Source of the DNA: Eledone cirrhosa
Lineage: Eukaryota
Assembly: GCA_964016885.1 (NCBI GenBank)
Contig: CAXHJY010000208.1
Location: 1-42,668, forward strand
DNA: 42,668 nucleotides
Direction: 5' to 3'
Numbering within the stretch: position 1 is the stretch's first letter; each line of letters opens with the position of its first letter. The position numbers and the translations under genes are program-made. Shown here in pieces: positions 4,000 to 40,293 of the stretch. The notes beneath the pieces were generated by a model. That model saw only the letters and a program-made list of their open reading frames with translations. It was not told the DNA's origin and did no database searches.

Positions 4000-4384
4000 A
4001 TACATACATACATATACATACATACATACATACACACGTATACATATACGCACAAATATACATACATATATGCACGCATACATACATGCATACGTACATA
4101 CATACATATATATATATGTATATACATACATATATATATATATACATGCATATATATATATATACATGCATATATATATATATATATACATGCATATATA
4201 TATATATATATACATGCATATATATATATATACATGCATATATATATACATGCATATATATATATATATATATATATATATATATACATGCATATATATA
4301 TACATATATATATATATATATATAAAATATTTAAAAAATAATGAATAAAACAATGAAACAGTTCCTTATATTAAACAAAAAAAG

Positions 4385-4538
4385 TTCATTATTTAACGAT
4401 CGTTTCTGGGATATATATGTGTTAGAATTGGCATGTATATTTAACAGATCTATGTACAAAATTATACAAAATTATACAAACTATCAAAATTAAATATACA
4501 TACCAACTCATATATATGCCGTCTTCAGAAATAATGAA
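4385..4538 (-). ncRNA. Mirror copy of the long-stem-II hammerhead in the inverted arm
   Basis: Reverse complement of 5629-5782. Confidence 0.75.
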
Positions 4539-5628
4539 ATATATTTATTGATAATAACAACAATTCAAAATTACAGGTCTGTTTGGGAACAGAGTTCAAA
4601 TTGACCAATGGAAACACAAAAAGTTTATACAGTTAGGTGTGTGTATATATGTAAGTAACTTCGTTCACAGATATGCATAAAAATATATGTTCACATGCAT
4701 ACGCATGCCGAAAAGATGTATGTAAATACAAAAATTCAGGGCTAATGTCTCTGTATGTTTATAATCTACAGATAAAATACATATACGCATATAAACATAT
4801 AAATATAAAAATAAATATATACACATTCATATACTCACACATATACATACATTCACACACACACGCGCATATACGCATGTGTTTATGTATATGTGTATGT
4901 ATATGTATGTATATATATATATATATATATATGTATATCGATGTATATTTTATATTTTACTTGTTTATATATATATATATATATATATATATATATATAT
5001 ATATATATTCTTAATATTTTTCTTTTTTCTTTTTCTTTTTCTTTTTCTTTTTCTTTTTCTTTTTCTTTCTAAATTTATAGATACATTTATAAATAGGCAG
5101 TTTGCTGACACCAGTAAATACTGACTCTTCCCCCCCCCCCCCACCTACTTTCTGTATCTGGATCTAAATATGTGTGGCAGTGTTTATGTGCGCGCATTAA
5201 TGTCCATATGCTTATGATAATAGTATATACACATATATGTGTGTGTGAGTGTGTGTGTGTATGTATGTTCGTGGTTGTGTGTATGTTTATGCGTATATGC
5301 GCGTGTGTGTGTGAATGTATGTATATGTGTGAGTATATGAATGTGTATATATTTATTTTTATATTTATATGTTTATATGCGTATATATATTTTATCTGTA
5401 GATTATAAACATACAGAGACATTAGCCCTGAATTTTTGTATTTACATACATCTTTTCGGCATGCGTATGCATGTGAACATATATTTTTATGCATATCTGT
5501 GAACGAAGTTACTTACATATATACACACACCTAACTGTATAAACTTTTTGTGTTTCCATTGGTCAATTTGAACTCTGTTCCCAAACAGACCTGTAATTTT
5601 GAATTGTTGTTATTATCAATAAATATAT

Positions 5629-5782
5629 TTCATTATTTCTGAAGACGGCATATATATGAGTTGGTATGTATATTTAATTTTGATAGTTTGTATAATTTTG
5701 TATAATTTTGTACATAGATCTGTTAAATATACATGCCAATTCTAACACATATATATCCCAGAAACGATCGTTAAATAATGAA
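5629..5782 (+). ncRNA. Type I hammerhead ribozyme with ~115-nt stem II
   Basis: Stem I TTCATTATTT/AAATAATGAA; core CTGAAGA 5639-5645; long hairpin 5646-5760; GAAA 5761-5764; palindromic stem III CGATCG; GUU cleavage triplet ending 5772. Confidence 0.8.
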
Positions 5783-6061
5783 CTTTTTTTGTTTAATATA
5801 AGGAACTGTTTCATTGTTTTATTCATTATTTTTTTAATATTTTATCTTGACTCTGTATTCCGTTTATCTTTCACCGAAAGTGATTTTTCATTGCATCTCT
5901 TCTTTCCATGATATCCGGATTACATTGAGTTCTTCATACGGATTGGACACTACCGTAAACTCTTGGTAGATTTATCTACATATATATATATATATGTATA
6001 ATTCACTGGACTAATTGCTGACCTTGTGCCTAACGTAGAAACAATTATTACTATTATTATT

Positions 6062-6326
6062 GGTGGTGGAGAATTGGCAGAATCGATAGAGCGTCGGACA
6101 ATATACTTAGCTGCAGAGAGTTATGGCTCTTTACGTTTGGAGTTCAAGTTCCGCCGAGGTTAACTTTGCCTTTCATCCTTACGGGGGTCGATAAAATAAA
6201 GTACCAGTAATACACTGGACTAATTGCTGACCTTGTGCCAAAAGTCATCCTTACGGGGTCGATAAAATAAAGTACCAGTAATACACTGGGTAATTGCTGG
6301 CCTTGTGCCAAAAGTAGAAACAATTT
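6062..6326 (+). mobile_element. tRNA-derived SINE (cephalopod-type) with duplicated 3' end; additional 3' fragment at 6003-6050
   Basis: A-box-like TGGCAGAATCG, B-box-like GAGTTCAAGTTCC, body TTTGCCTTTCATCCTTACGGGG-TCGATAAAATAAAGTACCAGT shared with several other copies in the window. Confidence 0.85.
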
Positions 6327-7099
6327 TAAGGTTGTGCAATGTTTTCTCACTAGGAGTCTCTGGTGTGATCGCCATAACATCTCTTCACTTTTCATCTCTT
6401 TCATAACATTCTTATATTCTTGTTCTTTCTTTATTATATTCACATATTCACATATTCTTTCAGGTATCGCCATGGTCGTTTTTATATATATATGTGTGTG
6501 TTTATATATATATATATATATATATATATATATATATATATATATATATATATATACGTATATACACACACACACACACATGTATATATATATACACACA
6601 CACACACACACACACACACACACAGACACACACATATATATATATATATATATATAATATATAATATATATAATATATATACGTATATACACACACACAC
6701 ACATATATATATATATACAGAGAGAGAGAGAGAGAGAGAGAGAGAGAGAGAGAGAGAGAGAGAGAGAGAGAGAGAGAGAGAGAGAGAGAGGGGGATTGTT
6801 TATTTTTTAAATGTGTTGCTGTTATCTCAATTTGGCAATCCCAGAGCAATTTAATTTGAAAGCGTTTTGTAAACAAATACACACACAACACACACAACAC
6901 ACAACACACACAACACACCACACAACACACACAACACACACACACAAACACACACACAGACATACACACCACACACACACAAACACACACACAGACATAC
7001 ACACCACACATACACACACATAAAGTATAGATAGTAAACAGAAACAACAAAGCAATGAAGAAGGTGTATTTGTTTAATGTTTGATATAGCAGGAAAAGA

Positions 7100-7136
7100 G
7101 TTTTTACGTTTCGGTTACTAGTCCTTCATCAGAAGA
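7100..7136 (-). ncRNA. Minimal hammerhead motif of a PLE-type terminal repeat remnant
   Basis: Minus strand CTT-CTGATGA-AGGACTAGTAACC-GAAA-CGTA. Flanks are homologous to 37520-37615. Confidence 0.6.
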
Positions 7137-7689
7137 TAGAATAAGAAATAAGGGATAAAATTTTAAAAATAGAGAGTGAGAAGAGTAAAGATGGGGAAAA
7201 ACCTTTTTGAGAAAAGCACCTGAGTATTCATAGCCATTTTAGGGAAATACCACACAGACTTTCACACACACACACACACACACACACACACACACACACA
7301 CACACACACACACATATATATATATACATATATATATATAGATAGATAGATATATATATATATATACATATATACATGTACAGAGAGACAGAGAGACAGA
7401 CAGACAGACAGACAGGCAATTACTCTGATGATGTTATTCTAAATTAATTAAGAAATTGCAGTACACATTTTTAGCTAGAGCCTCTAACGGAAACTAGCGG
7501 AAACTGCTGAAACCGAACGAGACTTAACCAACACTAGCGGAAACTGCTGAAACAGAACGAGACTTAACGGAAACTAGCGAAGAATACAGGTAAACAGACT
7601 GTTATATAAAATAAACAGAATAAAGATGTTGTTTACCAGTTAAGAGAACTCTGTACCAGACCCACCCAACAACACCAACATATATATAT

Positions 7690-38272: not shown

Positions 38273-38299
38273 GTGTGTGTGTGTGTGTACAATGTCAAT

Positions 38300-38475
38300 A
38301 ATACATGCTTTGCAGCATAGAGTTACGGCCCTTTATGATCCGAGTTCAAATCCCGCCGAGGTTAACTTTACCTTTCATCCTTACGAGGTCGATAAAATAA
38401 AGTACTAGTCACGTACTGAGGTCGATTTAATTGACTTACAAATTGCTGGTCTTGTGCCTAGAAAAGAAACCATTA
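38300..38475 (+). mobile_element. SINE, same family as 6062-6326
   Basis: GAGTTCAAATCCCGCCGAGGTTAACTTT...GTCGATAAAATAAAGTAC. Confidence 0.8.
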
Positions 38476-38565
38476 TATATATGTATGCGCTATTCAACTC
38501 AACATAGCTCCCAAGAAAAATAACCTCAATTTGTTTGAACATATTCCTCCCTGTACCAGTTATAT

Positions 38566-38641
38566 AAGTGACACGTATTGCTCCCTGTACCTGTTATATA
38601 AGTGACACGTATTGCTCCCTGTACCAGTTATATAAGTGACA
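38566..38641. repeat. 34-bp tandem repeat
   Basis: CTCCCTGTACC(A/T)GTTATATAAGTGACACGTATTG repeated ~2.8 times (start approximate). Confidence 0.75.
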
Positions 38642-39049
38642 GCAAATATTGCTGGACTTTCTCTACTGAGTATTAGATGAAGGAGTGGATTGGAGTGGGG
38701 TGGAGTGGGGTGGAGTGGGGTGAAGTGGGGGTGGAGTGGTAAAGGAGTAGGGTGGCGGGTGTGGTGGTGGGCGGGGGGGAAGGGATGGGGGAAGAGATGG
38801 GGGGGGGGGGGGTCCACAGGATATGTGGCAGAGAAGAAATGTATAGAAAAGAATTGGAGAGGAGAGGGTATGGGGTGGGAGAGAGAGAAGGAGAGAGAGA
38901 GGGGGGGGTAAATGTTTCATCAGTGTGGCATTACAATGAGATGTGACAGGGAGAAAGACAATATAAGACAGATTGGGGTGGGTGGTGGTGTGGGTGGTGG
39001 TGTGGGTGGTGGGGTAGGTGGTTTGATGAGAAAGGAAATGGGAAACTAG

Positions 39050-39322
39050 TAATAATAATTGTTTCTACTTTTGGCACAAGGCCAGCAATGATCCCAGTAC
39101 ATTACTGGTACTTTATTTTACCAACCGCGTAAGGATGAAAGGCAAAGTTAACCTCGGCGGGATTTGAACTCAGACCATAAAGGGCTGTAGCTCGATGCTG
39201 CAAAGCAAGGCGTCCGACCCTCTACCGATACTGCCAATCCACCGCCCTTACTAGTAATAATAATTGTTTCTACTTTTGGCACAAGGCCAGCAATTATCCC
39301 AGTGCATTACTGGTACTTTATT
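39050..39322 (-). mobile_element. SINE (39050-39248) plus adjacent 3' fragment (39253-39322)
   Basis: Reverse complement of the 17210-17402 family. Confidence 0.85.
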
Positions 39323-39924
39323 GTATATTTGCCTCAATATAGGTTTTTCCAAAGAATCCCTGTTCTTTAAACTCCCTTCGCCAATGACCTCCACCCATCC
39401 TAATCACCATCTTTGCCAACCACCACAAAACGTATAAATACCACCACACCACAATGGCTGTTGGCTTTCCTGGTGATTTCCTTCCACTTAAACAGTTCTG
39501 CTCCTGTAGAAGCCATTTATATATTTATATATATGTGTGTGTGTGTGTTATATATATATTATATATATATATATGTGTTATATATAAATATGTTATATAT
39601 ATATATATATGTGTTATATATAAATACATTATATATATGTGTTATATATATATATATTATATATATATATGTGTAATATATATAAATATTATATATATAT
39701 ATATTATATACATTTTAGTCTATATATATATATATATATATATATATATATATATATATATAATACATATATATATATTATATATATTTTAGTCTTCAAG
39801 TTCATTATTATTACTATATATATTATATATATATATATACATTATTTATATATATTTTATTTATATATATTATATATATATATTATATATATTATATATT
39901 TATATATATATATATATATATATT

Positions 39925-40293
39925 AGAAAGTGAGGTTTTTTTTACAAAATGAAAAATAACCGAGGTGTCCTACACGAGTGGAAGTATAAAGAAAAAGGGA
40001 TGAAATCGAAAATGCAACTGAAGTCTTATTTTTTTTTTAAATATATATATTTATTTGGTTCCTTTACCGGTTTCGCAGTTCTTCTGCTTTTCAAAAGGTG
40101 AGTTGAGATGGAGGGTCTGTGGTTTTTCTCACTCTTAGTACGGCTGTGAGAAAAACCACAGACCCTCCATCTCAACTCACCTTTTGAAAAGCAGAAGAAC
40201 TGCGAAACCGGTAAAGGAACCTATTAAATATATATATTTTTTAAAAAAATAAGACTCCAGTTGCATTTTCGATTTCATCCCTTTTTCTTTATA
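39925..40293 (-). mobile_element. Hairpin-plus-tail element: arms 39985-40132 and 40146-40293, tail 39925-39984, variant hammerhead in each arm
   Basis: ~148-bp near-perfect arms with a 13-nt loop. CCTT-TTGAAAA-GCAG-aagaa-CTGC-GAAA-CCGG-TA-AAGG at 40180-40217, mirrored at 40061-40098. Confidence 0.8.

Follow-up and report, generated by a model that had tools for sequence, protein, structure and literature searches.

Asymmetric hairpins in the TA microsatellites of Eledone cirrhosa are insertions of the Penelope-like kind and probably consist of two cDNAs primed on one RNA

Penelope-like elements (PLEs) of the Hydra clade insert into (TA)n and carry hammerhead ribozymes. The clade includes Hydra-1_Obim, an Octopus family, and Penelope-13_HM, its members are generally shorter than 3 kb, and a copy with an inverted 5' part has been described (Craig et al. 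2021, PMC8557442). The origin of the inverted repeats and tails of PLEs is named there as an open question. For another PLE, Poseidon PAc, in vitro work has revealed that the tail is bounded by two start sites of the reverse transcriptase (RT), that both target strands are extended and that uncleaved RNA is the main template (Frangieh et al. 2024, PMC11167929). Mobilisation by PLEs has also been proposed for the non-LTR retrozymes (Cervera and de la Pena 2020, PMC7229834; Li et al. 2026, 10.64898/2026.07.22.740005). Here, we analyse contig CAXHJY010000208.1 of Eledone cirrhosa, for which an initial annotation had reported seven elements in TA repeats that share an inverted arm, an unpaired tail and usually a hammerhead. 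The window is this entire contig of 42.7 kb, taken from a genome of 3.0 Gb in 1796 contigs; its GC content is 30%, and it is rich in TA microsatellite.

All seven elements are real insertions of a known kind, with the layout of PLEs: inverted arm, unpaired tail and TA repeat at the ends were found at every one of the seven places. We call them A (4322), B (13350), C (14809), D (15026), E (24317), G (33725) and F (39925), count element positions from the last base of the tail (0), and use L-numbers (L108, L281 etc.) for sampled genomic loci. They had been thought to represent several unrelated families; there are indeed six, but A and E, whose ends are 92% identical, belong to one, and the other pairs lack similarity except for a weak match between A and B (27 nt, E 0.004). 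Each family has hundreds to thousands of other genomic copies that end in (TA)n: a first look gave, as lower bounds, 877 candidates for A, 2463 for B, 1038 for C, 940 for D, 159 for F and 1895 for G, and exact patterns of the small hairpins of 140-370 bp (mini-hairpins, or minis) matched genome-wide 1074 times for D, 1637 times for F and 3297 times for C, with 0 matches for the reversed control. The arm maps of A and G were built by k-mer mapping, as the BLAST arm map was confounded by microsatellites.

The resemblance to the Hydra clade as described in PMC8557442 is close: a GIY-YIG domain without CCHH, the CxCx5C, DKT and RW(K/R) motifs, a hammerhead near the 3' end and the (TA)n target are shared, as are an inverted, 5'-truncated copy and a tail on one side only, and the published table of hammerheads frequently lists two further points of agreement, GUU sites and an additional base behind the core. 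There are differences as well: the tails measure 61-134 bp here but 30-40 bp there, the elements are larger, at about 5.4 kb (D) or above as against less than 3 kb, their 3' regions being long and rich in microsatellite, and thousands of what seem to be run-off mini-hairpins occur here, of which the portions of PMC8557442 considered make no mention. As layout, clade, hammerheads and (TA)n targeting are already published, the system as such is not new; the novelty seems to lie in the integration mechanism read from the junctions. In the literature searched, with Repbase reports and subscription papers, among them Evgen'ev and Arkhipova 2005 and Arkhipova 2006, lying outside the search, no proposal of twin priming by PLEs, of run-off at a cap or of mini-hairpin families was found.

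Our analysis suggests that the lopsided hairpins in (TA)n are probably two cDNAs of one RNA that started at two fixed sites and were joined head to head. The outer ends point in this direction. The tail, which is 134 bp long in A/E, about 62 bp in B, 77 bp in C, 63 bp in D, 61-65 bp in F and 84 bp in G, is followed by TA repeat in 49 of 49 D, 13 of 14 C and 10 of 14 F hairpins that were readable in genome order, in agreement with the proposed targeting of (TA)n. The arm without the tail ends at a fixed position (-134 in A, -77 in C, -59/-63 or -72 in D, -61 in F and -84 in G), and this short end stays constant while the junction between the arms lies anywhere from 60 bp to several kb away, just as had been predicted. 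Both the long and the short ends have 2-5 nt of microhomology to the TA repeat. Of the hairpins taken in genome order, 49 of 50 in D, 15 of 15 in C and 13 of 15 in F pair a single long end with a single short end; two D flags were corrected by eye, and two F hairpins were unreadable. Short-ended copies without an inverted arm exist (L295, L299, L313), and the tail can be found on either arm (G loci L160 and L161). By analogy with Poseidon PAc, we infer that the long and the short end are the two RT start sites, used as a pair. Five of the six tails (A, B, C, D and G) contain the motif WGAGYWC 42-56 nt before the long end, and 5000 shuffles never yielded it in three or more of six; the motif, picked after inspection, is a post hoc candidate for an RT recognition signal.

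The arms provide the second line of evidence. Both arms of a hairpin appear to derive from the same template: the distinguishing allele at column 19 of D occurs in both arms of 28 hairpins and in one arm of none (65 hairpins), the corresponding numbers are 8 and 1 for column 46 of C and 13 and 1 for column 112 of F, and the alleles agree in 23 of 23 long head-to-head D pairs within 10 kb (read by eye). The RNA would then have served twice. A single cDNA that primes its own second strand by folding back, the copy then being taken up by the other target end at a site resembling TA, would also make arms that nearly always share the alleles of the template. This was the origin assumed by the initial annotation, and it is close to the reading of palindromes as products of self-priming (Arkhipova 2013). 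Many junctions are indeed near-symmetric palindromes, and some D ends show a snap-back of stem I. Nevertheless, we regard fold-back as improbable, as the chemistry of the junctions and the asymmetry of the arms fit two cDNAs better. There are centres of one base or none, with unlike additions on the two sides, and a one-base centre would be too tight for a priming loop. Of 25 long junctions of A, C and D, 7 have a tail-less arm that outreaches the other by more than 30 nt on the 5' side; the tail arm is the longer one in 13, and the two are equal in 5. In F, the T/A tract differs between the arms in 14 of 16 parsed hairpins (10 of 26 rows could not be parsed and were dropped), and it does so in both directions, the T count of the inverted arm being higher in 6 and lower in 7; a few hairpins are chimeric, with arms of different subfamilies (L032, L045, L135, L225 and F of the window), and at 12900-13015 the arms do not overlap at all. 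Finally, the short end occurs alone and is fixed despite many other TA sites. The total length of the F tract is constant in 27 of 32 arms, and its boundary shifts are possibly dislocation errors of the RT. Near 40030-40045 of the window the boundary moves from T3A10 towards more T at constant length, and a smaller shift (T7A2 / T6A3) is seen in family A. The claim that the palindrome is made anew at each insertion holds: since the junctions are diverse and the base at the centre changes its orientation with respect to the tail (A in 7 and T in 3 for D, 3 of each for F), the hairpin is not inherited.

The third line of evidence comes from the mini-hairpins. In D, 2148 arms belong to minis and halt within a few bases of -130, and 4622 arms, a number partly inflated by local tandem arrays, run further upstream; both mini alleles are also present among the latter. 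Of 100 D arm ends, 52 lie at -130, 41 at A-131 and 7 beyond, and at A-131 a G stands where the genome has C in 28 of 31 informative ends. The D junctions can be parsed as end, single A or T, end in 34 of 50 cases, 19 of them asymmetric, and the F minis have the same C-A/T-G centre with a near-universal 5' G. Judged by the initiator consensus, the stop bases sit in initiator-like contexts. We therefore suggest that the minis are the result of run-off to a putative capped 5' end after priming on a 5' copy of the tail, with putative capped starts at -131/-130 in D, -141/-137 in C and -211/-209 in F; they would be dead-end products of parent transcripts. In L324-L325, 12 D 3' ends are arrayed in tandem with a period of 1.1 kb; this array includes the flanking TA and is a local expansion.

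The 140-370-bp forms had been suggested to be mobile units in their own right. For C, D and B this is not supported, as their minis are the 5'-cut ends of long elements, nor is it for G, whose minis are fragments of a tandem unit. In the case of F, both a hidden master and self-copying solo hairpins are possible. Minis, chiefly those of F, might copy themselves in the manner of short interspersed elements (SINEs): the internal promoter of a solo would drive a transcript into the TA flank on which the Hydra RT can act. Among 75 F loci, no two have upstream sequence in common, and no locus runs on behind the tail into sequence related to F; F subfamilies exist, the 5' G is near-universal in this family, and C has a 257-bp non-coding tandem master (L243). 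For Penelope, an internal promoter in the pseudo-long terminal repeat (pLTR) has been described (Schostak 2008). We consider this possibility unlikely, though, because the hairpin is not inherited but has varying junctions and a flipping centre base, because the 4622 upstream-running D arms include both mini alleles, and because the PAc RNA needed about 55 nt past the start sites, which the minis lack (PMC11167929). In summary, both fold-back and self-mobile minis are probably wrong. The search for a parent of F gave none in the 75 loci. A search by non-G upstream context returned 166 matches, of which the 30 fetched were hairpins or solos; a tandem-looking site in C5 turned out to be a stuttered junction, and L230 was rejected as a continuation past the F tail since it belongs to another hairpin family (L230:1731-2350, minus strand), which abuts the F tail and has a short similar stretch at 34830-35020 of the window.

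Still less should be expected of DNA transposons of the miniature inverted-repeat transposable element (MITE) or Helentron type, or of fold-back artefacts of assembly or library preparation: inverted repeats do lie in TA context, the window holds a short element with terminal inverted repeats and TA flanks at 11967-12066 that we take to resemble a Tc1/mariner MITE, and centre-spanning reads were not isolated among the raw restriction-site-associated DNA (RAD) reads on C and D hairpins, but a one-sided tail, asymmetric ends and variable centres contrast with the inverted-repeat termini and fixed interior of such transposons, the link to RT-GIY-YIG reading frames is continuous, the arms have mutated independently (B, 77%), and in raw reads of two other individuals TA stands immediately behind the short end, in C with 886 and 747 reads and in D with 388 and 510 reads. 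Strand-switch joints seen in the RAD reads can be ascribed to a related family and to tandem copies of small size.

The two-cDNA reading can be put into five steps. (i) The RT-GIY-YIG protein would cut both strands of (TA)n, for which there is in vitro precedent in another PLE. (ii) One target end would prime at the long site, the end of the tail, and the other 61-134 nt further in, at the short site, each through the observed 2-5 nt of TA-like microhomology. (iii) Both cDNAs would copy the same stretch of the same RNA, which would account for the shared alleles. (iv) When priming occurs on the 5' copy of the tail, both would run off the capped 5' end, giving minis of 140-370 bp with the pile-up of ends and the untemplated G. 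(v) The 3' ends of the cDNAs would be joined via one added A or T or via microhomology, and each would template the second strand of the other. It is tempting to go further and to regard programmed twin priming as the way in which PLEs solve second-strand synthesis, with a dimer acting on one capped RNA, cDNAs switching via one added base, and tandem RNAs of the G type parasitising the machinery through a short tail motif; this extension we put forward tentatively. With Poseidon PAc in vitro the model shares two internal RT starts that bound the tail, the cutting and extension of both target strands, a predicted dimer and uncleaved RNA as the main template. There, however, target and start site are reported to lack homology, in contrast to the TA microhomology here, and inverted arms and second-strand synthesis are not addressed in the portions of PMC11167929 considered. 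Twin priming of LINE-1 (Ostertag and Kazazian 2001, as presented in PMC11702581) likewise involves a second internal RT priming on the other target end, an inverted 5' part and an end-joined centre, but it is occasional, its second site is variable and its cDNAs barely overlap, whereas in the present families it is the rule, with a fixed site and two copies of one and the same stretch.

Several observations weigh against this proposal. The shared alleles are equally expected from fold-back or gene conversion, the T/A shifts in F could stem from slippage after insertion, and the asymmetry of the arms could follow from later deletions at the palindrome centres. To our knowledge, the RT of PLEs lacks RNase H, and the reuse of the RNA depends on this assumption. 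As for the run-off, the G signature is weak in C (where a script found it at 3 of 30 ends and reading by eye at about 21 of 100), F has no known parent, so that its G is not demonstrably untemplated, and a cap is needed for only 13 of 33 D ends that start with G. The commonest addition in D, TC on the cDNA, can also be explained by snap-back of hammerhead stem I, and a longer TCATC of the snap-back type occurs at two D junctions (L275, L277).

The PLE origin of the hairpins is supported by walking upstream in long copies: A/E, C and D run into open reading frames (ORFs) of Hydra-clade PLEs, so that the expected link between family and ORF exists for these; none was found for B, F and G in the loci examined. 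Family A has a 759-aa Hydra-type ORF in L281 that ends early, D has an intact ORF of 713 aa in L108 within a parent unit of about 5.4 kb, and the long C copy L102 contains a Hydra ORF remnant 57% identical to the D ORF. The window itself holds a 5'-truncated Hydra-clade ORF at 27489..28550 (+), 41% identical to the D ORF (E 2e-49) and without a Pfam match. This ORF had been put forward as a mobiliser, but it comprises the thumb end, linker and GIY-YIG domain without the RT core and is itself a truncated product. In the parent elements, RT and C-terminal GIY-YIG form a single ORF, in which F-D-x-x-M-G and YRDD are (near-)invariant among 44 sequences. Library matches are weak (GIY-YIG E 0.018 for D, retron RT E 0.02), with PF00078 and PF01541 each found in one homologue; one of the two named homologues is from an octopod. 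RWR and DKT occur in the D and A ORFs and RWK in three homologues; RWK/DKT were not seen for C, the copy of which is truncated. The CxCx5C linker, a GIY-YIG domain without CCHH and CxxC..E..N..CxH are present both in the window ORF and in D, and the C remnant carries CxCx5C and CxxC. A hammerhead near the 3' end, judged by motif and pairing, and insertion in (TA)n were found for A/E, C and D. The length of less than 3 kb does not apply to D, at about 5.4 kb, or to the longer A, owing to their 3' regions. By this motif comparison, A/E, C and D are Hydra-clade PLEs, the named reference Hydra proteins not being among the matches; a 'Neptune' label was dropped on the same grounds. For B, longer copies exist, yet no ORF was found in 6 long loci; nor was there one in the 75 F loci or in the unit of G. 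B, F and G appear to insert like Hydra-clade PLEs and are not placed as members. ORFs of other PLE families adjoin sampled copies at L093, L094, L100 and L102/L283.

A hammerhead just upstream of the tail was only partly confirmed. Four of the seven elements, A, E, D and F, possess a complete core together with its stems, D in both arms, but the core is mutated in B and incomplete in C and G. Most other B copies have an intact core; the window copies of C and G end before the 5' half of the core, which longer copies possess, and the C mini-hairpin of the window holds the 3' half only. As all assignments rest on motif and pairing, these are candidate ribozymes. In C and F, U3-A8 replaces C3-G8, the two pairs being exchangeable in the hammerhead core. 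A rescue by C3G/G8C has been shown experimentally (Frangieh et al. 2024, PMC11167929). A strict descriptor matched only D and F (4 matches, both arms; 0.17 per shuffle), and Rfam gave no hammerhead among the matches listed in a scan of the window (the best 150 of 439); those listed for the hairpins were of microRNA type only and below the gathering score. The hammerhead does not look like a working part of the insertion: C minis do without it, and D joints near the cleavage site number 20 as against 1074 at the putative start, although -72 ends escape the pattern used for these 20 hairpins, and products of very small size may be inserted inefficiently. The low number agrees with uncleaved RNA as the main template in vitro. 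Raw reads on 15158-15221 of the window include head-to-tail repeats of about 78 bp with the D hammerhead, possibly a minimal tandem ribozyme array.

The designation 'retrozyme-like' is justified for family G only, the C, D and F minis being single hairpins rather than tandem hammerhead units. G is a non-coding tandem unit of 548 bp that contains a type I hammerhead, whose core lies at -342 and whose site lies at -263, and the joint from tail to start was seen in 13 of 30 loci, two pairs of which overlap. Its insertions have ends at -84 and 0, lie in (TA)n and have inverted arms of up to 818 bp across unit boundaries. G thus appears to be a retrozyme-like unit inserted with a PLE footprint, its self-cleavage and RNA circles being putative. 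With non-LTR retrozymes (PMC7229834) it shares the non-coding tandem unit and the type I hammerhead; the published basis for their mobilisation is co-occurrence and pLTR similarity, whereas G shows the footprint of PLE insertion itself. One of 15 C hairpins in genome order also continues into a tandem unit, of 257 bp: at L243:1420-2180 the hairpin is followed by three such units, from the putative transcript start to a likely start codon. Like the C minis, this unit lacks the 5' core of the hammerhead. On sequence grounds, the real non-autonomous units would be tandem RNAs that keep sequence past the tail, i.e. G and the 257-bp C unit, both of which likely use the same enzyme.

In the window, the family A insertion extends over 4322..5979 (+), with the inverted arm at 4322-4878, the sense arm at 4879-5979, the 134-bp tail at 5846-5979 and a hammerhead (core at 5639, predicted cut after 5772, GUU). 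Its sister copy E spans 24317..32569 (+), with the inverted repeat at 24317-27484 / 29277-32435, a 134-bp tail and the hammerhead core at 32238. The arms are 99.6% identical in A, 99.4% in E and 77% in B, an old hairpin at 13354..13598 (-) with the mutated hammerhead core at 13513. B lies tail-to-tail with a relative of D at 13194..13339 (+; 83% in the tail), which has an inverted 5' part; elements often stand in this manner within each other's TA flanks. A second C insertion, missing from the original list of elements, is located at 12900..13015 (+): its inverted arm covers -77..-135 and its sense arm starts from -57, a layout that resembles LINE-1 twin priming. The C mini-hairpin occupies 14812..15001 (+; inverted arm 14812-14863, sense arm 14864-15001, 77-bp tail) and the D mini-hairpin 15027..15226 (-; arms 15092-15157 / 15159-15224, one-base centre 15158, 63-bp tail). 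At 33724..33852 (+) there is a short piece of the 548-bp tandem hammerhead unit of G with a 28-bp inverted arm and an 84-bp tail. The F hairpin at 39924..40292 (-), the 5' end of which is fixed, carries a U3-A8 hammerhead in each arm; the arms differ at a site polymorphic within the family. An 18-bp filler at its junction (40130..40147, +) is the exact reverse complement of 40492-40509; the source is the tail of the adjoining arm-plus-tail element at 40334-40539 (family H, with more copies in L082 and L261), and the filler, which also speaks against fold-back, is a templated insertion of a kind presumably typical of end joining. Among the other features, a near-symmetric 177-bp hairpin in TA repeat (10542-10718) and its partial copy 3 kb upstream (7657-7680) flank a long TA-rich minisatellite, tandem arrays are present at 21570-23655 (unit about 53 bp) and 17980-19500 (unit about 40 bp), and a LINE whose apurinic endonuclease domain is matched by Pfam (E 4e-5) is represented at 40851-42620 by its 5' part, with TA repeat at the end. 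Copies that we take to be tRNA-like SINEs lie at 6073, 17220, 23889, 38304 and 39050.

The genome of E. cirrhosa offers thousands of young junctions and, in L108, a copy with an intact ORF, and a specific model is therefore testable. In annotations, hairpins of this kind are prone to be taken for MITEs or for precursors of microRNAs. With family G, there would be direct evidence from a genome for the insertion of animal retrozymes by the PLE machinery. If our proposal is true, a single reaction gives rise to inverted arm and tail as well as to mini-hairpins in their thousands, and this would explain how PLEs finish an insertion.

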